Positions 13,657 through 54,351 of a stretch of 64,000 nucleotides of DNA are shown here, in pieces. The translations under genes were made by a program, and so were the position numbers. The stretch is from an uncultured Gammaproteobacteria bacterium. Lineage in GTDB: Bacteria > Pseudomonadota > Gammaproteobacteria > CAZDOC01. Location of the stretch: contig CAZDOC010000003.1 of assembly GCA_964506945.1 (NCBI GenBank), forward strand, positions 65,142 through 129,141. The letters are read 5' to 3'. The notes under the pieces are model-generated. The model made no database searches and was not told the DNA's origin. It worked only from the letters and a program-made list of their open reading frames with translations. Position 1 is the first letter of the stretch, and the number at the start of each line of letters is the position of its first letter.

Positions 13657-13960
13657 GGAAATCAGGTGTTTTTTTGTGAACCAGTTCCCTTTCAGAACAG
13701 GGACTTAGCTTACAGATCCTCGGGAGGCTCTAATACTGCGGGGGCTATGGCCCCAGACTCTTCATTTACATCATCATGTTGCCATTGATAAGTAATAATT
13801 CACATTAAGTCCACCCCCGCTGTGCGGTCACTGCGGGAGGAATATCGGCAAGGCGCGGAAGAGATCCGCCACCAGGGGCGGCGGCGGCCGGCAAAGCCGC
13901 GTTTCCCGGGCCGGCAAGGGAACGCCCAGGGACGGACGTTTCCTTGCCGATATGGAAAAA

Positions 13961-14341
13961 ACGAGCCGGTCTGTAAGCCGGGTTCTGTACCATCCAGTGA
14001 TGGTGGCAGCCATTCATCTAGGCCGTGCGTCGCCGCACGGCTCCAGCGACCTACCCGGGGACTGGCGCGGACCACGCCATGCCGCTCATGGCGGCCCGCC
14101 CCCCTATTTGGTCTTGCTCCGGGTGGGGTTTACCCTGCCACCGGCGTTGGCCGGCGCGGTGCGCTCTTACCGCACCTTTTCACCCTTGCCGGCATGCCCG
14201 GGGGCATGCGTAGGCGGTATGTTTTCTGTGGCACTTTCCGTGGGCTCACGCCCCCCAGGCGTTACCTGGCACCCTGTCCTGTGGAGCCCGGACTTTCCTC
14301 TGTATCGAATCAAGGATACAGCGACTGCCCGACCGACTCGG
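13961..14341 (-). ncRNA. rnpB: RNase P RNA, bacterial type A (M1 RNA)
   Basis: Minus strand contains GGAAAGTCCGGGCTCC, AGGGTGCCAGGTAACGCCTGGGGGGCGTGAGCC, GGTGAAAAGGTGCGGTAAGAGCGCACC, CTAGATGAATGGCTGCCAC, ACAGAACCCGGCTTACAG. P1 can form between 5' GAGTCGGTC and 3' GACCGGCTC. Ends in a U-tract. Ends approximate (+/-5 nt). Confidence 0.9.
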
Positions 14342-14395: not shown

Positions 14396-15241
14396 TCACG
14401 GATCCTGTTTCAAGGCCAGCGCCAGCTGGTACAGACTGTTCCTGCGCCCACCGACGATCTCAGCCGCGGCCGAGGCCGCCTGCCCGGCGGGCAGATGTCC
14501 CAGCAGGATGCGCAGCACACGTTCATCCTCGCGGGCATCCTGCGCCTGTTCGCCGGCACCCTCCACCAGCACCACGATCTCCCCGCGGCCGCGGTTCTCA
14601 TCGGCCCGCAGCCAGTCCTGCAGCGCCGCCAGGGTATCGCAGTGTACACTCTCGTGGATCTTGGTCAGTTCCCGCGCGACGCAGACCCGGCGCCCGTCGC
14701 CAAAGACCTCGGCGAGCGTGCCCAGCATCGGCAGCAGCCGATGTGGCGCCTCATAGAATATCAGCGTGCGCGACTCATCCACCAGCCCCTCCAGCCGCGT
14801 CCGGCGGGCGGCCTCCCTGGCCGGCAGGAACCCTTCGAAGCAAAAACGGTCGGAAGGCAGACCGGATACCGACAGCGCCGCAATCAGGGCGCAGGGTCCG
14901 GGTATGGCCCGGACCGGGATCCCCCGCGACCGCAATCCGCGCAACAGACGGAAACCCGGATCACTGATCAATGGGGTACCGGCATCCGAGATCAGCGCCA
15001 GGCTCCCCCCCGCCTGCAATTGCGCCGGCAGGGTTTCGCAGAGCGCGGCCTCGTTGTGTTCGTGGCAGGCACGCATGGGCGTGGTAATGCCATAATGGCG
15101 CAACAAACGCGCACTGTGACGGGTATCCTCGGCCAGTATCTGATCCACCTGACCGAGTACCGCCACGGCGCGGGGACTCATATCCTCGAGGTTGCCGATG
15201 GGCGTCGCCACCACATACAAAACCCCTTTCTCAATTGACAC
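14396..15241 (-). CDS. rsmI: 16S rRNA (cytidine1402-2'-O)-methyltransferase
   Basis: 281-aa tetrapyrrole-methylase-fold protein (VLYVVATPIGNLEDMSPRA...LISDAGTP); likely GTG start. The 981-aa ORF 14396..17341 in the track is an antisense read-through artefact across lpoA. Confidence 0.85.
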   Translation of the reverse strand: MSIEKGVLYVVATPIGNLEDMSPRAVAVLGQVDQILAEDTRHSARLLRHYGITTPMRACHEHNEAALCETLPAQLQAGGSLALISDAGTPLISDPGFRLLRGLRSRGIPVRAIPGPCALIAALSVSGLPSDRFCFEGFLPAREAARRTRLEGLVDESRTLIFYEAPHRLLPMLGTLAEVFGDGRRVCVARELTKIHESVHCDTLAALQDWLRADENRGRGEIVVLVEGAGEQAQDAREDERVLRILLGHLPAGQAASAAAEIVGGRRNSLYQLALALKQDP

Positions 15242-15310
15242 CTGACACCGCCCCCCCGGATACTGTGAAGCCTGCTGATATCGCTGCCGTAATACCGTAA
15301 AGAGGACATT

Positions 15311-17241
15311 ATGCCGTTTCCCTACCGCTTGCCACCACCGCGGACCCTGCTGACCCTTGCCGCCCTGATCGGCATGGCCCTGCTGCTCGCCGCCTGTGGC
15401 CCCGAGACCACGGTGAAGCCACAACAGGTGACCGCGCCTGCGGACGCCAGGGCCTGGCGACTCCTGCAACAGGGACAGCCGGCGGCGGCCGCCGCGGCCT
15501 TCATGGCCCTGGCGGCCAGCAGTGATGCCGGGCTGGCGCGAGGCTATCGCCTGCATGCGGCGGACGCCTTCCTGCAGGCCGGTGACATGGACAATGCCGA
15601 CAAGACCCTGAGTGCCCTGTCCGATGAGGGACTGACACCCGCGCAGAGCGCGCTGCGCGCCCTGCTTCGGGGAGAGATCCAGGTTCAGCGCCATCGCCCC
15701 AGGGAAGCCCTGGAAACGATACGCCCGCTGGACCCGAAACAGCTGCCCCCCCCCCTGCAGGCGCGTCTCCATCGCCTCCGCGCCGCGGCCTATGATGCCA
15801 TGGGCAATGCCCTGGAGAGCGCCCGCGCGCGGGTCGCCCTGGATCGATACCTGTCCACCGAGGCCGAACACGAGGCCAACAATGCCGCCATCTGGGCCGA
15901 TCTGAAGCGCATCAGACCCAAGGTCCTTAGCGAACTCCTGCCCGCCAGGGCCGATACCCTCTCCGGCTGGATGGAACTGTCCATCATCGCCCGCACCGAT
16001 GTCCTCGATACGAAGCTCTTCGCCGAGGCCATCTCCAGCTGGCAACAGCGATATCCGCAACACCCGGGGATGCGCTCGCTGGTCTCGAAACTGACCGAAA
16101 CCAGCAAGATACTCGATGTCAGCCCGGCCAGCCTGGCCCTGCTGCTGCCCTCCAGCGGCCGCTTCGCCGGTGCCGCCGCGGCCATCCGTGACGGCTTTCT
16201 GAGCGCCTGGTACACGGATCCCAGGGCGGACAAGCCGCCCATCAGGATCTATGATGCCAATGCCGCGAATATCGATTCCGTCTATCGGCAGGCCGTCGAT
16301 GACGGCGCGGAACTGATCGTCGGCCCCCTGGACAAGGCCGCGGTCGAATCCCTGGCCGCACGCAGCGAACTGCCGCTGCTGACCCTGGCCCTGAACCAGG
16401 TCGACAGGCCCAGCAACAGCAAGGCCGCTGACCCTCGACACCGGCTGCTGCAATTCGCCCTGGCCCCGGAGGACGAGGCCCGCCAGGTGGCCGAGCGCGC
16501 CTGGTTCGATGGTTATATCAACGCCCTGGCCCTCACCCCCGAGGGCGAGTGGGGACAGCGGGTCATCAAGGCCTTCAGTGACCGCTGGCTGGAACTCGGA
16601 GGCAAGCTGCTGTCTCAACAGGGTTTCAAGCCCGGGGCCGCGGATCTGTCGGCACCGGTCAAGCGCCTGCTGGGCATCGATGCCAGCGAGCGCCGCCGCA
16701 AACGCCTGCAGGCCAGCCTGGGGGAAAAACTGAAATTCGAGGTGCGCCGGCGCCAGGATGTGGATTTCGTCTTCATGGCCGCATTCCCGCGCGACGCCCG
16801 CCAGCTCCGCCCGCTGTTGCGTTTCTTTCACGCCAGCCAGGTGCCGGTGTACGCCACCTCGCAGGTATTCAGTGGCAAGCCGGATGCCGAGGCCGATCGG
16901 GATCTGAACGGCTTGATCTTCGCCGACATGCCCTGGGTGATCGATCATGGTGGCGGCTCGCCAGCCCTCTATCATCAGATCCAGCGTGACTGGCCGGACA
17001 CCGCCGCACGTTACACACGCCTCTATGCCCTGGGCATCGATGCCTATGGCCTGATCCCGCACCTGGGCCGCCTGCAGGTCAATGACTATGCCAGCTATGA
17101 AGGCGAGACCGGCAGCCTGAGCATGGATGCCGGCGGCCATGTCCACCGGCAGCTGAGCTGGGCGCGGTTCCAGGATGGCCTGCCGGTACCCCTGGCCGCG
17201 GAGGCTGCATCCAGCCCCCTGCTGAGCGCCAGGCTGCCCCG

Positions 17242-17245
<4 letters not shown>
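15311..17245 (+). CDS. lpoA: Penicillin-binding protein activator LpoA (lipoprotein)
   Basis: 644 aa with lipoprotein signal (LLLAACGP), N-terminal TPR-like region and C-terminal periplasmic-binding-like domain; conserved rsmI-lpoA-yraN-diaA-dolP synteny. Confidence 0.8.
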
Positions 17246-18257
<1,012 letters not shown>

Positions 18258-18930: not shown

Positions 18931-20193
18931 CTATTCCACGCCGTCGATGACCAGATTACGCCATTCACTGGTGGCGATACCCACCCCGTTTTTGTCTATG
19001 GCGACAACACGCCAGCGCAAGGCATCCCCGGCATATCGCTGCAGCCAGGGCGGCGCCCTGTAGCTGGACCCGGTGGACTTGACGATCGCCGACAACACGG
19101 GCCCCTGGTCATTGACCAGCTCCAGCTTGTAGAAGGCCGTATCGGGGTGGTTGATCCAGGTGAATTCCAGTTTCGTGGGGAGGATCCGGGCATCGCTACC
19201 CGGCAGCATCAAGCCGATCCGGCCCCTGGCCACCGGGCGGTCCAAGGCTTCCTCCTCCGTTCCCACATAATAGCGGAGTACCGGCAGCGGGAAACCGGCC
19301 ACCCCTCCGCTGACCGCAACACCCGCCAGGGTGTTTGAATCGCCTTCCTTGTCGTCCGTGGCCTCTATGCGCAGCAGGACACGGTACAGGCCACCGCCGT
19401 CCGTGGTCGGCCTGATACGTCTGGGTCCCGGCAGATAATAGCGACCCGTCGGGGGCAGAAACACTTCGAACCGCTCCAGCAAGGTATATCGTTTTTGCGT
19501 GCCCCGCTGTTCCACGGGTAATGTCGCCTCGGTCAACAGATCGCGCGTACTGGGCTCCGCGTCACCGGGATAGACCAGTTCCCAGCGGCCCTTCAGACGC
19601 CCGCTACCGTTATAGCGGATATCGGCCCCGAAATCGGGCAACGGCTCGCCGGTTCCAACGGCCAGGATGGCCTTGTCCCCGCCCTTGGCCGCGAAGCTGA
19701 TCTTCACGTCGGTCAGGGCGAAGGGCACCCTGGCGCCTCCTCCCGCCATCCTGCAGGTCACGGTGACAAAGGTATCGACCCCACCATTGCGGAATTGCCG
19801 GACGTAGAAGAATTCCGACGAATTGCCCCGCAAGGCCTCCTGGAATGCCCGCCTGGTGACGGAATCGGGGATGGTCATGATGTCGGTGAAATTTTTCACT
19901 CCCCCGGTACCACTCACCGTGGACTGGTCGTTGCGCAGGGGCAGACTGCCGAAGATCGTTCCCGGAACACAGGGATTGAAGCCGAGCACGCCGGTTGCGG
20001 TGACATCGCCACACCAGAAGGCGGCAACGGCCCGTTCCCCCGCCGCCAGTCCCTGGAAGGTTATGAATACCGTCGTCGGGCCATGAGAACTGACATTGAC
20101 GCCGGTCGGGTTTCGACCGGTTATGGCGTCTGCCGCCGACGCCAGCAGCCACAGACAGACAATGAGTAAAGTGCGATATTTAGGTGCCATCAC
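18931..20193 (-). CDS. Hypothetical secreted protein (420 aa, cleavable signal peptide), translationally coupled to the upstream beta-barrel gene
   Basis: Long ORF with N-terminal signal (MAPKYRTLLIVCLWLLASAADA); only 11 nt separate it from the preceding stop; no family recognised. Confidence 0.6.
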   Translation of the reverse strand: MMAPKYRTLLIVCLWLLASAADAITGRNPTGVNVSSHGPTTVFITFQGLAAGERAVAAFWCGDVTATGVLGFNPCVPGTIFGSLPLRNDQSTVSGTGGVKNFTDIMTIPDSVTRRAFQEALRGNSSEFFYVRQFRNGGVDTFVTVTCRMAGGGARVPFALTDVKISFAAKGGDKAILAVGTGEPLPDFGADIRYNGSGRLKGRWELVYPGDAEPSTRDLLTEATLPVEQRGTQKRYTLLERFEVFLPPTGRYYLPGPRRIRPTTDGGGLYRVLLRIEATDDKEGDSNTLAGVAVSGGVAGFPLPVLRYYVGTEEEALDRPVARGRIGLMLPGSDARILPTKLEFTWINHPDTAFYKLELVNDQGPVLSAIVKSTGSSYRAPPWLQRYAGDALRWRVVAIDKNGVGIATSEWRNLVIDGVE

Positions 20194-20204
20194 AGGGTTC
20201 CGGA

Positions 20205-22508
20205 TTAGAACAGGCTGATACTCAGACCTGAATTGACCGACCAGGTTCTGGCCGAACTCGAAAAGCCAAAGCTGTTATCGAGACTTTCACTCTCCTGAAA
20301 GGTGTAGCGGACAAACAGCGAGCCCGGGATTTTCCGCTCACCTATGGATGGCAGGGCAAAACTCCAGTTGAGCTGGGCCTGGCCATTGTTGTCCATACGC
20401 TGGGCGATCGACAGATCATCATCCTGGCGGGTATGGGTAAAGTTTGCATTCAGCGACCAGTTCTCCAGAAAGCGCCAGTCCAGCCCGGTATTGACCGTAT
20501 TGGTATGGCTGACGTTACCCGCTGCGATATCCTTGTTATCGACCATGGAGTAGGACACATTCAGGTTGAGCCGATCCAGGGGATTGATGGAGATGGAGAA
20601 GTCGTTACCGAAATTGCGGAAATCGTTCAGTGTACGTCCGACCTGCTGATTGTCCTGCCAGGAATTGGAATAGGTATAAGCGGCCGACCAGCGGGGACCG
20701 GACCAGTTAAGCCCCAGGCGCTGGTCCCGGTTGAACTGTTTCGGCAGATGACTGCCGCCATTGAAACCGCTCAGGGCGCCAGTCGGATTGTTGCCCGCCT
20801 TCTGGCGTACCTCGTTGACGGAATAGGTGGCATTGGGGATCAGGTACTGCACCAGCCCCGGAGGCCGGAATATCGTACCCAGCGGCACATTCAGGTTCAT
20901 TGACCGGGTGTAGGTCTTGGTCCGCAGCAGGGTCGGTATGTTATCGACATTGTCATGCGTATCGACATAGACATACTGCAGTGAAACACTGTTGATGGAG
21001 GCGCTGAGACTGTACTGGTCCTTGACCACATCGGGAGTGACGAAGGCGCCTATCGAGCGGTACAGGGCATCGGCCTGGTCGCGCCGGTATCCCAGCGTCA
21101 GGCTGACCTGATATCCCTCTGCCGGCGAATACTGCCGCAACAGATCGTAGGCCACATCCGTGGAATAGGCGCTGTCGGCTTCCCGCTTCACGGGCAGGGC
21201 ATTGCCGTTGGGATCGATCACTGGATCGGCGGGGTTGACATAGTTGCTGCGGGCAAAGAGGACACTGCCACGCAAACGTCCGCCGGGCGTGCTCCCCGAC
21301 AGGGTGACGCCATAACCATCACTTTGCTCTGCATCGACCACTTCCCCGATATTGAAGTTGGTCTCGTTCCTTTTCGAGGCTGTCATATAGGACACCTCCG
21401 CCCGCAACCCGCCGGGACGGTCCTTGATGAACTCGAGCCCGACCGTGCCCGCGGTGATATTGTGCTTGCCGAGGTCCCGCAACCCGAAGAAATTGTTGAA
21501 CCCGACGATACTCGTGGCATTCATTGTATTGAACGAGGCATCGAGCCGATCGCTGAAGCGGTGATACAGGACCAGTCCACGGCTGGCGACATTGTTGATG
21601 AGCAGGGGGTTGCCGCCGTAGCTGATGTGCCCCAATTGCAGGCGGCTGTCGCCTTTCTGCACATCGATCAGGTAATCGTTCATGTCATACTTCGGCGCCC
21701 GCCCGCCCAGTTCGCCAAATCGCAGGGCCTGCTGGCGGTTGGAGAAGCCTGAGAGATTGATCGAGGTGTCTATCACCAGGTCCCCACGGCTATGCCGGGT
21801 GACCAGTCCGGCCTGGATCTCGGTATCCTTGAAGGTACGCCGCCTGGGGCGGGGCGCGTCTTTCTCGAAGGAAAAATGATTCCGGGTATTGACGGAAACA
21901 TCCAGCCTGGGGGCAATCTCGGCTTGCTCGAAACCGGATCCCGTCAACACCCGCAGGGGCCGCCTGGCCAGTTCCTGCCAGTCCTCCGGTCCCCTGGCCA
22001 GATACACGATCAACTCGTGCGCCCCTGGGGACAGCGCCACCACGCCCCCGGGGTAGACCAGATCCGCCTCGCCCCTGATCCTGAACAGGGCGGACATGTC
22101 GATATTATCGACGAAGACCTTGAGAAAGCCCTCCGCCGGATCCGGGATGCGATCGAAACCCAGGCTGATGCCATCGCTGACCGCGAGCCACTTGTCGTCA
22201 GCGAAATTCGTGGCCTTGAGCATGACCGGGACAGCCGCCGGGGCGGCGTCCACCATCGCCTCCGCGGGGGTCTCATCATCAGGGAAGTCCATGCCCTCGA
22301 AGGCATTATCGAGGTCATCGCCGCCGGCATCGGGCGCCGCCTCACCCTGCGCGTCCGTGGCCGTCGGCGTTTCCGCCGGGATCACGACATCGTCGAAGGC
22401 GTCATCGAAGACAGCGCTGTCCGCGGCGGCAAGCGGCGCAGCGAAGCAGGCGAGGATGGCACCGATCAGCAGCATGCCGTGGAGACCGACGACTTTCAGA
22501 AGCCGCAT
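20205..22508 (-). CDS. Large outer-membrane beta-barrel protein with acidic N-terminal extension (uncharacterised)
   Basis: Signal peptide MRLLKVVGLHGMLLIGAILACFAAPLAAA; Asp/Glu-rich about 90-aa segment; then about 550 aa of alternating Y/F/W-rich strands ending ...NSGLSISLF (C-terminal Phe typical of OMPs). The track ORF extends to 22631 but the signal-peptide Met is at 22508. Confidence 0.65.
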   Translation of the reverse strand: MRLLKVVGLHGMLLIGAILACFAAPLAAADSAVFDDAFDDVVIPAETPTATDAQGEAAPDAGGDDLDNAFEGMDFPDDETPAEAMVDAAPAAVPVMLKATNFADDKWLAVSDGISLGFDRIPDPAEGFLKVFVDNIDMSALFRIRGEADLVYPGGVVALSPGAHELIVYLARGPEDWQELARRPLRVLTGSGFEQAEIAPRLDVSVNTRNHFSFEKDAPRPRRRTFKDTEIQAGLVTRHSRGDLVIDTSINLSGFSNRQQALRFGELGGRAPKYDMNDYLIDVQKGDSRLQLGHISYGGNPLLINNVASRGLVLYHRFSDRLDASFNTMNATSIVGFNNFFGLRDLGKHNITAGTVGLEFIKDRPGGLRAEVSYMTASKRNETNFNIGEVVDAEQSDGYGVTLSGSTPGGRLRGSVLFARSNYVNPADPVIDPNGNALPVKREADSAYSTDVAYDLLRQYSPAEGYQVSLTLGYRRDQADALYRSIGAFVTPDVVKDQYSLSASINSVSLQYVYVDTHDNVDNIPTLLRTKTYTRSMNLNVPLGTIFRPPGLVQYLIPNATYSVNEVRQKAGNNPTGALSGFNGGSHLPKQFNRDQRLGLNWSGPRWSAAYTYSNSWQDNQQVGRTLNDFRNFGNDFSISINPLDRLNLNVSYSMVDNKDIAAGNVSHTNTVNTGLDWRFLENWSLNANFTHTRQDDDLSIAQRMDNNGQAQLNWSFALPSIGERKIPGSLFVRYTFQESESLDNSFGFSSSARTWSVNSGLSISLF

Positions 22509-22627
22509 GAAGCATCCGGTCACCTCCACCGCCCCTGACCTCCCAATAAAACACTGGGCATTTCTGTGATATTCATTATGAAAGAGCGATATTCTCTTGA
22601 TTGTTCTTATATGGCAATGCCGGCAGA

Positions 22628-25600
22628 TCAATAGTTTCCAATGTCGAAAAACACGCGCCCGCCGCTCACAGGATAGACCGCCTTTATGCGCTTGGCGCCC
22701 GAGAAACGCACGATCGTGTTCAGCCCATCGATCAGGGCCGTCTCAATGGCCTGCTTGTCTATCCCGCCATTGACACCGGCGTTGATCTTGCCCAGCAGCC
22801 ATCCCTTTATCAGCGACAGGGGAATGTTGGAATTGGCCACATCGAGACTGAAATCACTGGCGAACTCCAGCCGTGTATCGCGTAGTGGCGTCAACTCGCC
22901 CTGCCGATTGACAAATGCATGGATGACGATCCTGAGTTCGGGCGATATCAGGTCCCCGGTGACCGCCCGGCCGAATGCCCTGCCCACGATCTCGTTGCCA
23001 CTGGTTTCGAAGGGGACCGTGATCGTGAACGTCAGCTGTTTCGTGCCACTGACCGTGGTCGACAGGGTCGGGCTGTTGGCGCTCATGTCGGCGATATCGA
23101 TATGCACCCGCCCCCCCAGACCATCATAGGGCGGAACCTCGAAAGTGGTGCTATCACCCAGCAGCGAGATGCTGCCGCTACCGATGGGAGCCCCTATGGT
23201 CGCGGTGAACTGGCTCAGCAGCCCATTCGCCCAGTCGGCATCCAGGACCCAGTAGGCGAACCGTGACATCTTGCGGGTAACGCCATTCACGCGGTAGTCG
23301 GCTCCGCCCAGCGTATCATGGACACTGATGTAGCCAGCTTCAAATCCAGTGTCCCTGAAATTGCTGACCTTGGCCTTGATGAGGTCGAATGTACCGGCCT
23401 GGCTGCGCTGCATTATCCTTGCCGCAACCCGGCCAACTTTCACTTCGGTGATACCGCTAAAGTTGTGTCCCTGCAGATAAAAAACACCATCGCTGCTGTC
23501 CGGATTCTGTAACAGGGCGGGATCGACGATGCCCTTGCCGTGGATCTTCTGTCCGCCAAGACCGGGCCGGTAGTCGTCTATCCACATGTCCGTGATCTCG
23601 GGCTCGGCGGGGAAGTCGCCTACGAACCGGAATGAAATGGAGAACACCAGCTTCCGTATCTCGCCCTGGGGTGTGGTGATTTCCAGATAGGGTAATGTCA
23701 TGGTGACTTGTCGATTGTTCTTCCATGCCTCAAGACGATCACGGCTGGGCTGGAGGACATAGGTCGCGCGCCGACCCGTATCATTCCTCACCGTGTCACT
23801 CAGGCCGCCCCATCGGTAGTGACTCCATCCCGGACTGGCGCAGGCATCCAACTCGATATTCCTTCCGGGTTCGTAGGTCACCATCAGGGGCTGCTGGAAC
23901 TGGATCCAGTAATCTCCATAGGGAGCCGGCGTTGCCGAGTCGAAATCGAGGGTTCTGGTTTCTCCGCCACAGGGGATCTCTATGGTCACGGAGTGCCGGT
24001 TTCTCGTCGCGGTGGCGGCAGCCTGCACCGCGCTGGCGACACTGGCACTGCTGGCGGTGGTCGATGATGTCGTACCACGCGCCTGGTGCTGCCTGCCGTT
24101 TGTCCTGCCAGCGGACGCCGCTGGACGCCGTGTATCCTTGACCTTAGCCTGCTGGGCGGGAACCCCGCCTGGCCGCCGTTCCTGCAACAGGGCAGTCGTC
24201 CCAGCCGCCGCAGGCGCCTTGCGCGACGGCGCCATGCCCCGCTTGCCGGCGGGAGCCGATGAGGACCCGGCCGCAGTAAGCGAGGTCCTGGAACCTGGGC
24301 CCTTCGCCCCCTGCCTGGACGTCTGCACAGGACCGTCCGCCGCCCGCAGCAAGCCCACCTGGATGGATTTCACCGGGCTCCGGACCCTGCCGGTATCCAG
24401 GGCAACGACGCTCAGCCCCTGGTCGCCGCCCTTCGAGGCAATCAGGTCCATGGTGAAGACTTCTCGCTTCCTGAACGGTGCCCTGGCCTTCAGCGTCCGG
24501 CGCTTGCCGGCATAACTGGCCGCAATGGCCACCACGCCGGCATCATCCGTGGCGGTGATGCTCGCCCGGAACTTCTGTCCCGGTTTTATCTTGGCGGGGA
24601 TGGAGATATTCGTCACCTGCGGGGGCTGATTGGCCCTGGCGCCCACGCCTCCGCGGCCTGACGCGGCGGCCCTGGCGGGGGTCCGGACGGGAGGCCGCGC
24701 AGCCGCGGCGGCGACCTGGGCTGCGGGCTTCGCCGGCCGCCTCCTGGTGGCCGCCTTGCCGCGTGGGGCCTTGGCCGCCACGACCGGTTTCACCTCCGCC
24801 GCCGCCGAGGCCCTGGCCGCCACCGTGGCGGTCCCCGCCGGGGCGTTGGCGGAGCTCCCCGCCCGTTGCCCCGCGGCGCGGCCCGGTCTGGCCGTCGCGG
24901 ACCGGCTCACCGGGGTGTTGACCGCCACCGGCCTGACCGTCTTCGCCTTGGCGGTACCGGAATTGGCCCTCGTGGTGGCCGCATTCACCCGGCTCACCCG
25001 CAGCGTCGCCGTGCCAACGGGCCGTTTGTTCCGGTCCCTCAAGATCAGCACATAGCGGCCTGGCGCTTCCTTCTTGTCCAGCCCCAGGGTCACCGTGCAC
25101 TGGCTCGCAGAGGGACAATTCAAACTGGGGTTGAAGCTGGCCACGGACCGGGGCCCCTGCATCACCACCACGCTGCTGGCCGCACCCAGAGCCTTGCCGG
25201 TGAGGCTCAGGGTCCGTTCGTTCCCCACCTGCAAGACCACCGAGGCCGGCGTCAGCTTCAGCGGTTGTGGCAGCTTGACCACTGGCCTCGGTGGCGTCTT
25301 CCCAGGTGTCCTTGCCGCCGTGTTGGTACTGGACCGCGTGGCCGCCACCCGGCTCACCGGGGCGACCGTGGGCGCCGGCGCGACGCGCCGACTCGCGGCC
25401 TGGCGGGACTTCGTCGCCACCGGGGCGGTGGTGATCTTCACTACCCGCAGGGCCGCGCTGGCCACCGGCAGCTTGCGGGCGGACTGCAGCATGACCACAT
25501 ACACGCCCCTGCGGATACCCGCCCTGGGCGTCAAGGTGACCTCACAGCGTGTCGCGCTGGGACAGTTCAATGCCATGCCGGCGTGCTGGCTGGGCTTGCC

Positions 25601-25792
25601 CCCCTGGTACAACACCACCCTGGCGGCCTGAGTCAGATCCTTGCCGCTCAGGGTCAAGCTCTGGACCCGGCCCACGCTCAGGCTCACCGACGCCGGTGTG
25701 ATCACCACGCGCTGCGCCGCCTGCACGCCCAGGCAGACGAACGATAGCAGCAACAGATACGGCAGTGTGTTTATCTTCCTGTTGGTCATCCT
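22628..25792 (-). CDS. Large secreted/surface protein with tandem Ig-like domains separated by basic Ala/Pro/Arg/Lys-rich linkers and an about 450-aa C-terminal globular domain
   Basis: Signal peptide MTNRKINTLPYLLLLSFVCLGVQAA. Two homologous about 90-aa modules (VVITPASVSLSVGRVQSLTLSGKDL... / LKLTPASVVLQVGNERTLSLTGKAL...) plus a third degenerate one; long low-complexity basic linkers. The track ORF extends to 25873. Confidence 0.65.
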   Translation of the reverse strand, partial: RMTNRKINTLPYLLLLSFVCLGVQAAQRVVITPASVSLSVGRVQSLTLSGKDLTQAARVVLYQGGKPSQHAGMALNCPSATRCEVTLTPRAGIRRGVYVVMLQSARKLPVASAALRVVKITTAPVATKSRQAASRRVAPAPTVAPVSRVAATRSSTNTAARTPGKTPPRPVVKLPQPLKLTPASVVLQVGNERTLSLTGKALGAASSVVVMQGPRSVASFNPSLNCPSASQCTVTLGLDKKEAPGRYVLILRDRNKRPVGTATLRVSRVNAATTRANSGTAKAKTVRPVAVNTPVSRSATARPGRAAGQRAGSSANAPAGTATVAARASAAAEVKPVVAAKAPRGKAATRRRPAKPAAQVAAAAARPPVRTPARAAASGRGGVGARANQPPQVTNISIPAKIKPGQKFRASITATDDAGVVAIAASYAGKRRTLKARAPFRKREVFTMDLIASKGGDQGLSVVALDTGRVRSPVKSIQVGLLRAADGPVQTSRQGAKGPGSRTSLTAAGSSSAPAGKRGMAPSRKAPAAAGTTALLQERRPGGVPAQQAKVKDTRRPAASAGRTNGRQHQARGTTSSTTASSASVASAVQAAATATRNRHSVTIEIPCGGETRTLDFDSATPAPYGDYWIQFQQPLMVTYEPGRNIELDACASPGWSHYRWGGLSDTVRNDTGRRATYVLQPSRDRLEAWKNNRQVTMTLPYLEITTPQGEIRKLVFSISFRFVGDFPAEPEITDMWIDDYRPGLGGQKIHGKGIVDPALLQNPDSSDGVFYLQGHNFSGITEVKVGRVAARIMQRSQAGTFDLIKAKVSNFRDTGFEAGYISVHDTLGGADYRVNGVTRKMSRFAYWVLDADWANGLLSQFTATIGAPIGSGSISLLGDSTTFEVPPYDGLGGRVHIDIADMSANSPTLSTTVSGTKQLTFTITVPFETSGNEIVGRAFGRAVTGDLISPELRIVIHAFVNRQGELTPLRDTRLEFASDFSLDVANSNIPLSLIKGWLLGKINAGVNGGIDKQAIETALIDGLNTIVRFSGAKRIKAVYPVSGGRVFFDIGNY
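25050..25770 (-). repeat. Diverged tandem intragenic DNA repeat encoding the two Ig-like modules
   Basis: Segments about 25080-25290 and 25530-25740 align at roughly 70% identity (e.g. gtcaccgtgcactggctcgcagagggacaattcaaactgg vs gtgacctcacagcgtgtcgcgctgggacagttcaatgcc). Confidence 0.6.
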
Positions 25793-25897
25793 CGCATTCA
25801 CTGGCGCTGAACTCCGTTGGGCAATACGGCCTAAGGTGAGGATAGGCAATCCACAACCGTCACGGTATCCCATGAATTGGGGGTGCCGGTCCGGCCC

Positions 25898-26617
25898 TCA
25901 GCGGAGGCGGTCAGCACAGATACCCCAGATCTCCCTGCGATAGACATGCAGCTGGTAGGCGATATCGCCAGTAGGCTCCTGATGCCACTTGATCTTTATT
26001 GGGCTGCATTGCAGGCAGCCCGGCTCGGGCCGGGACAGGATCCTGGCCAGGCCATAGCGCCCTTGCTGCAGCAGTTGCGCATGATCGAATATCAGGGCCC
26101 GGTGACGACATGCCGGCGGCGAATTGCCGACCTGATAGCTGTCCACCCCCTTGTCCCCGACCGACCTGCTGGAACTGCGCGCAAATACCAGCAGGTCCTT
26201 CACCGTACCCGCCGGGATCATCCGTGCTATCGACCTGCCAGGACGGATCACCGGCCTGATCGTATAGTGGCGGCTGTTGCTGCCACCCTTCTCGGCCACC
26301 ACCTGTACCTGCACCCGCAGGCCCTTGTTCAAATCCCTGATCCGGACCTGTATCCGGGTCTCCTCCCAGGATTCGATCTGGACGCTGTATTTCAGGCCGT
26401 GACCATAATCGGCGATGACCTCACAAGCTTGACAGCGCTGACCAAAATCATGGCCTGAAAGGGTGACCCGGTTCTCCTGGGCACCCTGGAGTGACAGTAT
26501 GGAGGGACTGGACTGCGCCCCGCAGATGAGCGGCATGAAGCAGCACAGGCCTGTGGGCAATAACAGATACCGTCTGCTGATCCTGCTATTGCCCCGGCAT
26601 GGTATCGCGACCTTCAT
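25898..26617 (-). CDS. Hypothetical small secreted protein with an Ig-like module related to the repeats of the large neighbour
   Basis: 239-aa ORF; hydrophobic N-terminus (YLLLPTGLCCFMPLICGA); ENRVTLSGHDFGQ resembles the TLSG/SLTG core of the neighbouring repeats. Confidence 0.5.
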   Translation of the reverse strand: MKVAIPCRGNSRISRRYLLLPTGLCCFMPLICGAQSSPSILSLQGAQENRVTLSGHDFGQRCQACEVIADYGHGLKYSVQIESWEETRIQVRIRDLNKGLRVQVQVVAEKGGSNSRHYTIRPVIRPGRSIARMIPAGTVKDLLVFARSSSRSVGDKGVDSYQVGNSPPACRHRALIFDHAQLLQQGRYGLARILSRPEPGCLQCSPIKIKWHQEPTGDIAYQLHVYRREIWGICADRLR

Positions 26618-26767
26618 GGTTCATGGATTATGTTCCGGAACGGACCAGTGTCTATCCCGTAAATAGGGGAGCCCCGCAACGGCACCCGGGCGGGGCAGGC
26701 CCCGACACCGCAGGCGCACCAGCACCCGGGGGTCCACGGCTCCGGTATCCTTGCTCGAAATCTTCGT

Positions 26768-28660
26768 TCAGGGGTCTGCCGTGGCGATGGGCAGCCAGAG
26801 ACTGACCCGGGTGCCGGAATCATCGGAAATCAGCTCGAAGAGGGCGCCGATCCGCTCCGCCCTGCGGCGCATATTGTCCAGGCCCCTGCCGCCGGATGCC
26901 GGTTCGCGCATGCCCCTGCCGTTGTCCTGAATCTCGACGATCACCCCAGGGAGGTCCCCGCTGTTCATCTCCCGGGTCAGGATCCTGATCTCGCTGGCTT
27001 TGGCGTGCTTGATGATATTGCTGATCGCCTCCTGCAGGATGCGCAATACCTGCAAGACCTTCTCTGGACCCAGCCCCGAGACCCTGGGGATATCGCTGAC
27101 ATGCCATCGCATCATGATGTTGCTTCGTTCGAGGCGTGGCTGGATCCGGGATCGGTACATGGCCAGCACGCTATTCAGATCATCCTCGACCGGGTCCAGG
27201 GAATCGATCATCACCCGCAGGTCATCGAGCGCGCCGTGCAGGGCATCGAGGATCTCTTCCCTGCTGGCATTACTGGTCTCGACCATCGACAGTGTCGAAA
27301 TGAGATGGCCACCCATACCATCGTGCATCTCCCGCATGATGCGCTCGCGTTCCATGATCAGCACCTGTTCCTTCTCCATCTGACGCAGGCGCTGGTAGTT
27401 GCGCTCCAGTTCCTGGTGCTTCTCCGCGACGCGCATGCCCAGCTCTATGTTGAGCCGCTCCGCTTCATCCAGGGCCTTCACAAAACGCGTCAGCAGGATC
27501 CAGCTGAAGATCAACAGCGGGACGGGCGCGGCATAATGCATCATCAGGCCATTCTCCCGGCTCACGAAGTCGTTCAGCATCAGCCAGTCATGAACGCCGA
27601 AGACTATCAGCAGGAGTCCGGACAGGAGCAGGAGATAGGCCCCCACATCGCGCTGCTTGCGGTACTCGTACATCAGCAACGATGCCGGATAGATCCCCAG
27701 CAGCAAGGACAGGGTATCGACGACACGATGACCCACGGTGGGCAACAGGCTTTCCGGCACCAGCAGCAGCGCGATCGCGCCGATCGTCCCGGCGATCACC
27801 AGGCCTCCCTCCAGAAGGTGACGTTCCACGCCGGTGAATCTGTGTACGAACAGGGTCACCAGGATCACGAACCAGGCCATGGTCGTGAACCACAACCATT
27901 CCCAGACATGGCTGGAGGTGGGTATATGGGTCACGAACAGGTTCAGGTTGTGGATGGCCCAGACGAAGAGCACCAGGGAGAACCAGCCGTAAACCGAATC
28001 CCGCCGGTGCAGATACCACAGCACGCCCATGAAAAAGCCCATGACCACCATGCTCCCGGTCAGGATCCGGGCGATCGTCACCTTGAGAAAATACCGCAGT
28101 TCATAGGCCGGCCGCAGCACTTCATCCGGCGCCAGATGCACCTTCCCCAGATAACCCGATCCGGGAGACAGCGCCGCGATCCTGATGACCACGATGTTTT
28201 CACCGGTATTCAACATGCCATTGGGGATCATGAAATACTGCGGGGTGTTCCAGTTCCGGGTCATCGGCGCGTCAAAGCGCCCGCCATCACCGAGCAGGTG
28301 TCCGTTCAGATAAACCGCCGTATTCATGTTGATCGTGGGCAGAAAGATCGCCCACAGGCGATTGGGCGACACGTTCAGGTCCAGGGCAAACCGGTACCAG
28401 GCATTGTGCGACTGGGTATCGGCATGCCGCCAGTCATCAGGAAGTACGCCAGGGCGCCAGCCGGCATTTCGTGAGGGGGGGGTGACGCCATCCTGATAGA
28501 GGACAGTCACCTCATCCATGGTCAGGATGTTGTCCGGCAGCCAGGATTGCGCCAGATAGCCGACTATCGACACGGTCGCCGGCAGGCCGAAGAATACCAG
28601 GCCTATGACCAGCATCCAGCTGCGCCTGGCGCTACCCGCCGAATTCGTACCGTCACTCAT
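26768..28660 (-). CDS. Sensor histidine kinase, 7TMR-DISM type (periplasmic 7TMR-DISMED2 domain, 7 TM helices, HisKA_3 and HATPase_c)
   Basis: 630 aa; N-terminal signal/TM, about 170-aa periplasmic domain, seven hydrophobic helices, then REMHDGMGGHLISTL (HisKA_3 H-box) and ILQEAISNIIKHAKAS...DNGRGM (ATPase N/G boxes). Confidence 0.85.
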   Translation of the reverse strand: MSDGTNSAGSARRSWMLVIGLVFFGLPATVSIVGYLAQSWLPDNILTMDEVTVLYQDGVTPPSRNAGWRPGVLPDDWRHADTQSHNAWYRFALDLNVSPNRLWAIFLPTINMNTAVYLNGHLLGDGGRFDAPMTRNWNTPQYFMIPNGMLNTGENIVVIRIAALSPGSGYLGKVHLAPDEVLRPAYELRYFLKVTIARILTGSMVVMGFFMGVLWYLHRRDSVYGWFSLVLFVWAIHNLNLFVTHIPTSSHVWEWLWFTTMAWFVILVTLFVHRFTGVERHLLEGGLVIAGTIGAIALLLVPESLLPTVGHRVVDTLSLLLGIYPASLLMYEYRKQRDVGAYLLLLSGLLLIVFGVHDWLMLNDFVSRENGLMMHYAAPVPLLIFSWILLTRFVKALDEAERLNIELGMRVAEKHQELERNYQRLRQMEKEQVLIMERERIMREMHDGMGGHLISTLSMVETSNASREEILDALHGALDDLRVMIDSLDPVEDDLNSVLAMYRSRIQPRLERSNIMMRWHVSDIPRVSGLGPEKVLQVLRILQEAISNIIKHAKASEIRILTREMNSGDLPGVIVEIQDNGRGMREPASGGRGLDNMRRRAERIGALFELISDDSGTRVSLWLPIATADP

Positions 28661-29318
28661 CGAGTCTGATGATCCCCAGTTGCATGGCCTCGAAAACCGC
28701 CTCTCCCCGGGATCTTACCGAAAGCTTTTTATAGATATTCTTGATATGCGAGGTCACGGTATGCCCTGACACGTCGATGATCCCGGCGATCTCGTTATAG
28801 CTGAAACCCTTGGCTACATAACGGAGGACCTCTGTCTCTCTTTCCGTCAAGTGGGGTGCGTCTGCGTTACCGCCCACTTCGCCGCGATGCTGTCCGCCCT
28901 GGAATCGTCGCAACAAATGTCGCGCGATCGACGGACTCATCGGCGAAGCCCCCCCCGCGAGTTCGATGATTGATGCGCCTATCGCATCCATGCTGCTGTC
29001 CTTCAGCAGATAACCCGATGCCCCGGCCTCGATGGCCGAGAGCACATGTCGTTCATCACCGAACACGGTGATGACCATGATCTCCGTATCGGGGTATTGC
29101 CTGACCGTCTCCTCGATGATCTCCACCCCTTCCCCATCCGGCAGTCCCAGGTCCGTGACCAGGATATCCGGGGCCTGCCGCGCCAGGACCTCCCGGGCGG
29201 CATGGCAGCTATCCACCGCGGCCAACAGGCTCAGGCCCCGATGTCCGGTGATGGCCTGGGCGAGCTTGTTGCGCGTATTGGTGTCATCCTCGACCAACAT
29301 CACGGAATACGGTGGCAT
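28653..29318 (-). CDS. NarL/LuxR-family response regulator (REC and HTH_LuxR)
   Basis: SVMLVEDDTNTR...DILVTDLGLPDG receiver and C-terminal LTERETEVLRYVAKGFSYNEIAG...TVTSHIKNIYKKL LuxR HTH; 8-nt overlap with the kinase gene; start at MPPYS preceded by AGGGG. Confidence 0.88.
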   Translation of the reverse strand: MPPYSVMLVEDDTNTRNKLAQAITGHRGLSLLAAVDSCHAAREVLARQAPDILVTDLGLPDGEGVEIIEETVRQYPDTEIMVITVFGDERHVLSAIEAGASGYLLKDSSMDAIGASIIELAGGASPMSPSIARHLLRRFQGGQHRGEVGGNADAPHLTERETEVLRYVAKGFSYNEIAGIIDVSGHTVTSHIKNIYKKLSVRSRGEAVFEAMQLGIIRLDE

Positions 29319-29370
29319 GGCGGTGCCCCTGCCCTTGTCAAGGAAACCCTGATTAATCCAGAGTTTCCGC

Positions 29371-29412
29371 GGCACATGGATGTGCCCTGATAATTCATGA
29401 ATGAATTATCAG
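29371..29412. promoter_or_regulatory. Two adjacent perfect palindromes upstream of the response-regulator gene (candidate operator)
   Basis: GGCACAT-GG-ATGTGCC (29371-29386) immediately followed by CTGATAATTCAT-GA-ATGAATTATCAG (29387-29412); AT-rich in a GC-rich genome. Confidence 0.45.
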
Positions 29413-29668
29413 AGCCTCCTCTAACAACCACCTCAGCAATAACAAGCATCCTCCGGCGGTGTCAAGCCATACGCCAGGAATGATGCCGCTGCACGAATGG
29501 ACGGGATTCCACACACCGGAGCTACTGGCGGCAGGCCATCAAGACATTGGCCTGAAGTATCCCGGCTGACGGCCGCGCGCAGGTGATTGAATGAGAGACC
29601 CTACCCTGGATGTAAGCCGGGCGTCTTGCAATCAGGAATTCGTTCTTGGTGCGCCTCGGGGAAGGGCC

Positions 29669-54274: not shown

Positions 54275-54351
<77 letters not shown>

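Follow-up and report, generated by a model that had tools for sequence, protein, structure and literature searches.

A predicted 26-strand outer-membrane barrel and a secreted Ig-like partner form the conserved core of a variable bacterial gene cluster

Gene content and composition of the locus

The locus lies in a 64,000-nucleotide stretch of gammaproteobacterial DNA (the window) and comprises six co-directional open reading frames, all on the minus strand at 18931-29375. ORF calls support all six as real genes. They encode a response regulator, a sensor histidine kinase, a small secreted protein, a giant secreted protein, an outer-membrane barrel and a secreted protein of 420 aa, here called p420 (Table 1). 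Domain matches bear out the identity of both flanks, of which one holds cytochrome c1, a GST (SspA-like) and SspB, and the other BON (DolP-like), SIS, UPF0102 and LppC proteins. The four structural products carry signal-peptide-like N-termini, as judged by inspection of the translations. The original prediction also described the locus as visibly poorer in GC than its surroundings, with AT-rich intergenic islands and tight spacing, and these descriptions hold only in part. The GC content of the locus is marginally lower than that of the window (0.616 vs 0.642), and GC3 of its genes is 0.72-0.80 against roughly 0.73-0.88 in the neighbours. The sspB/pet flank is as low in GC as the locus, and part of the giant gene reaches 0.72-0.735. 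Since the difference is this small, it gives no argument for recent acquisition, and we discarded the idea of a low-GC island. Only the spacer between the giant and barrel genes is AT-rich, whereas the others have a GC content of 0.56-0.65. Tight spacing is restricted to the regulator and kinase genes, which overlap by 8 nt, and to the barrel and p420 genes, with 11 nt from stop to start, while the other gaps measure 108-150 nt.

Table 1. Genes, domains and sequence elements of the locus, in positions of the window
Feature	Position	Strand	Description
p420	18931..20193	-	secreted partner, 420 aa; signal peptide, three beta-sandwich (Ig/Fn3-like) domains
Outer-membrane barrel	20205..22508	-	767 aa from MRLLKVV; NCBI start 7 codons upstream; raw ORF to 22631
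26-strand beta-barrel domain	20211..21926	-	residues 195-766; C-terminal Phe; DSSP of AF2 model
N-terminal beta-sandwich of barrel	21948..22220	-	residues 97-187; presumed periplasmic; AF2 strands
Acidic N-terminal extension of barrel	22224..22424	-	residues ~29-95; disordered, pLDDT <50
Giant/barrel spacer	22509..22627	-	AT-rich, GC 0.46; may hold internal promoter
Giant secreted protein	22628..25789	-	1,053 aa from MTNRK; two Ig-like N-modules, linkers, middle module, C-terminal domain
Giant C-terminal domain	22631..23995	-	residues 599-1053; rare
Giant middle module	24335..24622	-	residues ~390-485; conserved among giant-type proteins
Second cis-element copy, CCCCCAATTCATGGGATA	25866..25883	-	~80 nt ahead of the likely start of the giant gene
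Small secreted protein	25898..26617	-	239 aa; N-terminal part IPT/TIG-like
Promoter-like TAGACA-16-CATAAT	26654-26627	-	upstream of small gene
Cis-element, CCCCTATTTACGGGATA	26653..26669	-	TATCCC-N8-GGGATA type; upstream of small gene, abuts -35 hexamer
Sensor histidine kinase	26768..28660	-	periplasmic jelly-roll-like domain, 7TMR-DISM 7TM, HisKA_3, HATPase_c
Response regulator	28653..29318	-	NarL/FixJ type, receiver + GerE HTH; raw ORF to 29375
Palindrome upstream of regulator gene	29384..29415		candidate operator, distinct from GGGATA element

The regulator and the kinase are ordinary members of known families. The regulator is of the NarL/FixJ type, with above-cut-off matches to Response_reg (73 bits) and to GerE (64 bits). 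The kinase is a 7TMR-DISM sensor by its 7TMR-DISM_7TM (PF07695, 40.4 bits, cut-off 29) and HATPase_c (38.4 bits) matches; HisKA_3 stays sub-threshold at 19.3 bits. The predicted two-component system is thus present, but the DISMED2 domain attributed to its sensor is not: PF07696 gives no match even at E up to 10, and the periplasmic domain has only a sub-threshold match to the BetaGal_ABD2 jelly roll (E = 0.012). The domain make-up is that of NarL/FixJ systems with RetS/LadS-type sensors, from which the present pair differs by this periplasmic domain without a 7TMR-DISMED2 match and by an uncharacterised target module.

As predicted, none of the four structural proteins matches a named family in Pfam, NCBIfam, PADLOC or the PDB sequences. 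Scans of Pfam, NCBIfam and PADLOC with these proteins, their sub-domains and 13 barrel and 61 p420 relatives return nothing above threshold, PADLOC anti-phage defence models included, and PDB sequence and profile searches find no relatives. An Ig-like module had been thought common to three of the products, which show no detectable homology in it; the only modules found to be related are the two at the N-terminus of the giant. Profile-profile comparison gives no support for a module shared by the small protein and the giant (hhalign probability <1%), and we rejected the idea.

Linkage and spread of the barrel and p420

The barrel gene lies directly upstream of p420 in 71 of 71 related loci with enough DNA, from six or more phyla. 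The conserved core is therefore this pair, and is smaller than the self-contained six-gene module first proposed: the strict pairing and the recurrence of the two-component system beside it agree with that proposal, but the six genes are not conserved together as a single cassette. The best conserved member is p420, with ~50% identity across Gamma-, Beta- and Zetaproteobacteria, Cyanobacteria, Acidobacteriota and Gemmatimonadota, and a median identity of 51% against 34% for the barrel. Its homologues number more than 2,243, with more than 2,200 clusters, and occur in 258 species representatives; the best 120 are all at least 50% identical, and none has a Pfam domain. The carriers span environmental sulfur- and iron-oxidisers, marine heterotrophs, soil Acidobacteria, Gemmatimonadota and filamentous cyanobacteria, with Aliikangiella marina GYP-15, Aurantivibrio plasticivorans, Nostocales HT-58-2, Leptothermofonsia ETS-13 and Tolypothrix among those in culture. 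We found no description of the module in the literature.

The AF2 model of the barrel, built on an alignment of only 13 sequences (pTM 0.62), has strands on which hydrophobic and polar faces alternate, and no plug is inserted. The last three loops, L11-L13, are 4 aa long each. The N-terminal beta-sandwich is found by phmmer in nearly all related barrels. When sidedness is assigned by the usual topology rule for outer-membrane proteins, conservation within the barrel is highest in the putative extracellular loops (2.48 bits), followed by the lipid face (1.94) and the periplasmic turns (1.66). Ordinary porins display the opposite pattern. Loops that bind a fixed partner would be expected to be conserved in this way. 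The model of p420 (pLDDT 83) consists of three beta-sandwich domains, for which fold searches return generic Fn3/Ig matches only. Domains D1 and D2 (3.2 bits per column) and the loop 278-300 (3.4 bits, overlapping the low-confidence model stretch 282-296) are its most constrained parts, a pattern that fits a buried interface.

Accessory proteins

The secreted proteins encoded beside the pair vary between loci and are not conserved. Homologues of the small protein (10-12) are found in ~14% of loci, mostly beside the kinase gene. Its six cysteines, including two CxxC motifs, are invariant; it has no Pfam match, and one homologue has a single weak TIG match. Giant-type proteins occur in three loci, those of the window and of its close relatives L008 and L090. 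The giant is basic (pI 10.9), as had been claimed, with basic linkers of Ala, Pro, Arg and Lys, and has no Pfam match. Its modules N1 and N2 are related to each other (42% identity, E = 8e-20), and its middle module is 46% identical to that of L008 and 42-46% to those of two L090 proteins. The relatives in L008 and L090 keep the N-terminal and middle modules and swap the C-terminal payload. The C-terminal domain has only 38 relatives among 1.84 billion representatives in an exhaustive search, and two homologues lie on contigs without a barrel. A profile of this domain finds no match in 85 barrel/p420 loci, and we rejected it as a core component. Across the loci, the accessories encoded beside the pair range from CARDB-like and Cys-rich proteins, the latter of ~145 aa, to giant-type proteins whose C-terminal payloads are TSP1-like or of another kind.

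The N-terminus of the barrel is acidic, as predicted, and its extension holds a motif repeated twice, VFDDAFDDVVIPAE and LDNAFEGMDFPDDE. Beyond the window, this repeat is present only in the L008 and L090 barrels and in 0 of 59 other barrels. Giant-type proteins and the acidic repeat thus co-occur in all three loci.

Cis-elements and regulators

A palindromic element of the type TATCCC-N8-GGGATA precedes the small and giant genes in the window and in L008, two giant-type genes and the barrel gene in L090, and barrel, small or accessory genes in ~12 other loci. Upstream of the giant gene it keeps the same relative position in L008 and L090. Its density is 0.55/kb in upstream windows vs 0.026/kb elsewhere, and many loci that carry the two-component system have it before structural genes. 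A conserved palindrome in these positions argues for dedicated regulation. We propose the element here for the first time as an operator, which the response regulator would presumably recognise. No GGGATA element lies directly upstream of the barrel gene in the window, and the giant/barrel spacer contains no strict sigma-70 match, GGGATA element or inverted repeat. Promoter and terminator scans of the locus do not exceed shuffled expectation.

The palindrome upstream of the regulator gene has 15-nt arms, 93% complementary in a repeat search, with an exact 12-2-12 core, CTGATAATTCAT-TC-ATGAATTATCAG, at 29387-29412. Its half-site does not recur within the locus. A Fur box was considered and dismissed on inspection, since the half-site spacing and central hexamers do not fit the Fur consensus.

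Full-length homologues of the kinase adjoin barrel/p420 in 24 of 85 loci. Cooperation may be confined to the barrel and p420, with the neighbouring two-component system, small protein and giant each having a role of its own. This would suit the limited occurrence of the latter three (28% and 14% of loci and three loci, respectively), and also the closer association of the small protein with the kinase gene than with the barrel. On the other side, the regulator and 7TMR-DISM kinase of the same families recur as a pair, in several orientations, beside barrel/p420 in distant Gamma- and Betaproteobacteria, and a common cis-element lies upstream of barrel and small genes as well as of giant-type and accessory genes. 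We consider separate roles improbable.

Other lineages have a different regulator beside the pair, with BTAD/TPR and TPR-CHAT proteins, ECF sigma factors and hybrid kinases all represented. Some regulator lies within ~9 kb in 34 of the 44 loci of at least 15 kb, and this abundance of differing types suggests that signalling could be central to the function. Outer-membrane proteins thread RcsF to the surface, and FecA has a periplasmic signalling domain. By analogy, p420 might be threaded through the barrel to the surface, or the N-terminal domain of the barrel might signal to a kinase, anti-sigma factor or BTAD regulator. The conservation of that periplasmic domain and the extreme conservation of p420 are compatible with such a sensor. 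However, the remaining 10 long loci have no recognised regulator, no STN/FecR-type domain was found, and regulators adjacent to an operon usually just control it, a simpler reading that the cis-element fits. A trans-outer-membrane sensor seems to us quite unlikely.

Comparison with known systems

Fold searches with the barrel yield generic matches only, with MtrB ranked first. The two share 9% identity, the MtrB_PioB profile does not match, and the present barrel has an additional N-terminal beta-sandwich. MtrAB(C) has a multiheme partner, in contrast to the three-Ig p420, which lacks CXXCH heme sites; no multiheme CXXCH partner was found. LptD resembles the barrel in its 26 strands, N-terminal beta-rich periplasmic domain and separately encoded plug protein, and yet neither the OstA N-terminal domain, the LptD C-terminal profile nor an LptE lipoprotein is detected. 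The FimD/PapC ushers, 24-strand barrels with an internal plug, resemble the locus in that a large barrel with an N-terminal beta-sandwich is combined with secreted partners of Ig-like fold, and chaperone-usher loci also encode variable surface proteins beside a conserved outer-membrane component. No Usher, PapC_N or PapC_C domain is found, and PapD_N, PapD_C and Fimbrial match none of the four proteins, leaving the locus with no recognisable chaperone or pilin. Nor did we find the components of a T5bSS, namely TpsB with POTRA and a 16-strand barrel and TpsA with a TPS/haemagglutination domain. A highly diverged chaperone-usher system, LptD paralogue or porin-cytochrome conduit overlooked by the profile searches is very improbable.

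Barrel and p420 might instead import a large or polymeric nutrient, with the surface loops and p420 binding it and the sensors inducing expression. Against this, the four proteins have no Plug, TonB_dep_Rec or STN match and no TonB box, and the barrel has 26 strands vs the 22 of TonB-dependent receptors. The pair has no conserved neighbour that is an inner-membrane transporter, a binding protein or a catabolic enzyme, and the genes co-regulated nearby encode secreted proteins that look structural and not enzymatic. A specific uptake channel is consequently unlikely.

A proposed plugged complex for variable secreted proteins

Our tentative preference, held with somewhat less than even confidence, is that barrel and p420 form a plugged complex for the export or display of co-regulated, variable secreted proteins under the control of the two-component system. 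The barrel and the soluble three-Ig p420 would associate as a two-protein complex in the outer membrane. LptE occupies LptD, and MtrA occupies MtrB. The barrel is wide, its terminal loops are short and it has no internal plug; thus, its lumen must be occluded. Large barrels are noted in the literature to require a globular plug (PMC13048289). Here p420, possibly with the N-terminal domain of the barrel, could fill the lumen or its mouth. The complex might then serve as an export and anchoring platform for secreted beta-sandwich proteins, which in the window would be the small IPT-like protein and the giant. The N-terminal and middle modules of the giant may dock at the barrel, perhaps on the lineage-specific acidic repeat, with the variable C-terminal domain as the displayed payload. 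On a presumed signal, the adjacent 7TMR-DISM kinase and GerE-type regulator would switch expression on, the regulator most likely binding TATCCC-N8-GGGATA where it overlaps the -35 region of the structural-gene promoters.

More broadly, the pair could be the outer-membrane core of an unrecognised export and surface-display pathway, a new type of secretion system spread horizontally among Proteobacteria, Cyanobacteria, Acidobacteriota and Gemmatimonadota with lineage-specific cargo and regulators. The cargo would comprise the giant-type adhesin-like, CARDB-like and Cys-rich small proteins. We consider this wider reading doubtful. Conservation beside the pair does not extend to any energy source, inner-membrane component or periplasmic chaperone that could drive export, which counts against both this and the narrower reading.

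Few outer-membrane barrels of very large size are known, and every one of them defines a major pathway, be it the insertion of LPS, the assembly of pili or electron transfer to the outside of the cell. The present locus adds a further predicted 26-strand barrel, whose partner is obligate and unusually well conserved. The pair extends over at least 258 species, at least six phyla and more than 2,200 clusters without a family model or solved structure. Its function, once worked out, would add a new envelope machine and explain a recurrent regulated gene cluster, and the predicted operator together with the cultured carriers makes the module testable now.

Composition of the locus

Positions 18931-29375 hold six open reading frames, all on the minus strand: a two-component system, consisting of a response regulator (RR) and a 7TMR-DISM sensor kinase, and four further genes, whose products, on inspection, all carry a signal-peptide-like N-terminus. 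The flanks of the original prediction are confirmed by a public contig that holds an identical locus, with cytochrome c1, an SspA-like GST and SspB on one side and DolP-like BON, SIS, UPF0102 and LppC on the other. The claimed low GC content of the locus is weak: it amounts to 0.616 against 0.642 in the window, the GC3 values of its genes (0.72-0.80) overlap those of the neighbours (about 0.73-0.88), and the sspB/pet flank is equally low. Of the AT-rich intergenic islands, only the spacer between the giant and barrel genes (GC 0.46) was found. Long antisense ORFs opposite real genes, such as one of 981 aa at 14396-17341 (-) opposite lpoA at 15311-17245 (+) and one of 489 aa opposite the kinase gene, are GC-rich artefacts and not genes.

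Genes, candidate cis-elements and RNA genes in the window
Feature	Position	Strand	Remarks
RR	28653-29318	-	From likely ATG; 8-nt overlap with kinase gene
Sensor kinase	26768-28660	-	150-nt gap to small gene
Small (secreted protein, 239 aa)	25898-26617	-	108 nt to giant gene
Giant (secreted Ig-like/basic-linker protein, ~1,053 aa)	22628-25789	-	Counted from MTNRK; followed by 119-nt AT-rich spacer
Barrel (predicted outer-membrane protein, 767 aa)	20205-22508	-	Counted from MRLLKVV; 11 nt to p420 gene
p420 (secreted partner of barrel, 420 aa)	18931-20193	-
GGGATA element	26669-26653	-	CCCCTATTTACGGGATA; upstream of small gene, abuts -35 hexamer
Second GGGATA element	25883-25866	-	CCCCCAATTCATGGGATA; ~80 nt upstream of giant's start
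Palindrome upstream of RR gene	29384-29415 (extended arms); 29387-29412 (exact 12-2-12 core)		CTGATAATTCAT-TC-ATGAATTATCAG
Further palindrome upstream of RR gene	29342-29368		GGAAACCCTG-N7-CAGAGTTTCC
RNase P RNA, bacterial class A	13958-14340	-	326 bits; between lpoA-side block and upstream genes
Single tRNA gene	54275-54348	+	Rfam, 74.5 bits

Conservation and distribution of barrel and p420

We compared the six window proteins by tblastn with 85 related loci from other genomes. The p420 gene is immediately preceded by a barrel gene in every locus with enough upstream DNA (71 of 71), and across the loci compared p420 has a median identity of 51%, the barrel one of 34%. The locus was a well-chosen target, but as a six-gene system it had been drawn too large: the conserved unit is the barrel together with p420. 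A loose association, in which these two proteins alone work together, is very unlikely in our estimate.

With each species represented by a single genome, a scan identified 258 carriers; cultured carriers are Aliikangiella marina GYP-15, Aurantivibrio plasticivorans and Nostocales HT-58-2. They include Thiotrichaceae, Kangiellaceae, Cellvibrionaceae, Thiodiazotropha and others among the Gammaproteobacteria, as well as Burkholderiales, Zetaproteobacteria, several filamentous Cyanobacteria, Acidobacteriota and Gemmatimonadaceae. A word-indexed protein search returned more than 2,243 homologues of p420, the best 120 of them all at least 50% identical, and at least 13 of the barrel. Queried with the C-terminal domain of the giant, this search missed the giant itself, even though the protein is in the collection; its negatives, including the low barrel count, are unreliable. 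The closest relative is locus L008, with a p420 identity of 74%. The L008 record is labelled 'uncultured Enterobacteriaceae bacterium', an assignment that looks unlikely from the order and content of its flanking genes when set against the gene order of Enterobacteriaceae; an artefact of binning or taxonomy is the probable cause. In Aurantivibrio plasticivorans (GCA_054767355.1, locus L006, 7897-9989) the barrel is encoded in two pieces, ORFs of 388 and 272 aa, and the cause may be a frameshift, decay to a pseudogene or an error in sequencing; a related Cellvibrionaceae MAG has an intact barrel of 697 aa.

Predicted structure of the pair

The AF2 model of the barrel (13-sequence alignment, pLDDT 77) predicts a disordered acidic segment at residues 1-91, a beta-sandwich at 97-187 and 26 strands at 195-766, ending in Phe. 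Known 26-strand barrels are MtrB and LptD, while FimD has 24 strands (PMC7198977). The p420 model (pLDDT 83) consists of a signal peptide and three beta-sandwich domains, for which fold searches returned only Fn3/Ig strings. In an alignment of 61 barrels, hydrophobic and polar faces alternate along the strands as expected. The most conserved class of positions is the loops placed extracellular by the usual topology rule (2.48 bits/column), compared with 2.12 for lumen-facing, 1.94 for lipid-facing and 1.66 for periplasmic-turn positions; the last three putative extracellular loops have 4 residues each. Conservation of p420 is higher, with a mean of 3.2 bits in domains 1 and 2 and 3.4 bits in the loop 278-300, modelled with low confidence at 282-296.

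A 26-strand barrel without a plug insertion implies that something must close it, and PMC13048289 notes that a globular plug is required in barrels of larger size. A fixed interface between barrel and partner would be expected to show itself in loop conservation, in a hyper-conserved partner and in strict linkage of the two genes, and we infer such an interface, by which p420 would close the barrel. LptD-LptE and MtrB-MtrA function in this manner; the likeness of barrel and p420 to them concerns a possible working mode, not family membership. A specific uptake channel would be another use for such a barrel, though an unlikely one.

Neither barrel, p420, giant, small nor their sub-domains have a match in Pfam, NCBIfam, PADLOC or PDB sequences. 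Scanned singly, 13 barrel and 61 p420 family members yielded only weak generic Ig or porin matches and no family match. When tested for membership among chaperone-usher, LptDE, MtrAB, TPS and TonB-dependent systems, the pair fell into none of them, and that it represents a diverged known machine is hardly probable at all. Our database and literature searches recovered no family model, solved structure or paper for the pair.

Regulators and cis-elements

The RR displays Response_reg and GerE domains, the kinase 7TMR-DISM_7TM and HATPase_c domains and a HisKA_3 match below threshold. NCBIfam places both only loosely near NarL/NarX-type families; as regulators they belong to known families and are unremarkable. 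The DISMED2 domain attributed to the kinase was undetected, its periplasmic part giving only a sub-threshold match to a beta-galactosidase jelly-roll. By tblastn, the RR and the 7TMR-DISM kinase occur as a pair in 24 of the 85 loci, all proteobacterial, in upstream, divergent or downstream orientation. Elsewhere the regulators are BTAD/TPR proteins, ECF sigma factors, hybrid kinases or TPR-CHAT proteins, and of the 44 loci that span 15 kb or more, 34 have some regulator. We consider it distinctly unlikely that the pair itself is a trans-outer-membrane sensing device.

The locus has a single good promoter-like site, TAGACA-16-CATAAT, which lies upstream of the small gene. A palindromic element, TATCCC-N8-GGGATA, occurs there and upstream of the giant gene, and L008 has it at the same two positions despite much more AT-rich DNA. 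In L090, another close relative, it precedes two giant-type genes and the barrel, and in about 12 further loci it stands before a barrel, small or accessory gene. In loci with the two-component system, the strict pattern reaches 0.55/kb in upstream windows versus 0.026/kb elsewhere in the same loci; beyond the two copies upstream of small and giant, the 64-kb window contains three matches, all within genes. Palindromes of this form, of ~20 bp, are the expected target of a dimeric GerE-type regulator, which is why we see in the neighbouring RR the presumed activator of small and giant and, in relatives at any rate, of barrel and p420. The two palindromes upstream of the RR gene differ from this element, and the locus contains no further copy of either.

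Accessory proteins

Small and giant are lineage-specific accessories. The small gene was detected by tblastn in 12 of the 85 loci, mostly directly after the kinase gene. Six Cys residues are invariant across its family, including two CxxC motifs (C62/C65, C201/C204); they could be engaged in disulfides or bind a metal. In the public annotation the gene call, of 212 aa, has its start further downstream, which would strip the signal peptide. The giant has two related N-terminal Ig-like modules (42% identical), linkers of basic Ala/Pro/Arg/Lys composition (pI 10.9), a middle module and, at the C-terminus, a domain for which 1.84 billion representative proteins yielded only 38 relatives; the two relatives looked up have no barrel nearby. 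An Ig module had been thought common to small and giant, yet the two show no detectable homology (hhalign probability <1%).

Giant-type proteins of L008 and L090 share the N-terminal and middle modules, but differ in their linkers (Lys/Ala/Pro-rich or Ala/Glu/Lys-rich) and in their C-terminal parts. Among the latter are TSP1-like repeats (W-x2-W ... C-S-x-x-C-G), carried by the proteins at L008 2083-6369 and L090 1-687; thrombospondin type-1-like repeats are uncommon in bacteria. An acidic motif that occurs twice in the N-terminal extension of the barrel, DAFDD-x3-P-x-EE or a close variant, is restricted to the window, L008 and L090, and absent from the 59 other barrels. In other lineages the pair adjoins different secreted accessories, none of which is present in the window: CARDB-like proteins, a ~145-aa Cys-rich family and others. 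The ~145-aa family, without annotation, lies beside the pair in 18 loci, for example in Kangiellaceae (L027, L028, L046, L063, L065, L082), each member having three C-x2-G-[YF]-x(8-12)-C-x-K modules.

Taken jointly, we tentatively favour, at somewhat less than even odds, a reading in which p420 would occupy the outer-membrane barrel, the complex would act as a platform on which co-regulated secreted proteins of variable kind are exported or anchored, and a lineage-specific sensor would control expression of the module. As far as these tools can tell, the barrel/p420 module, wide but patchy in its distribution, is an undescribed kind of envelope component.
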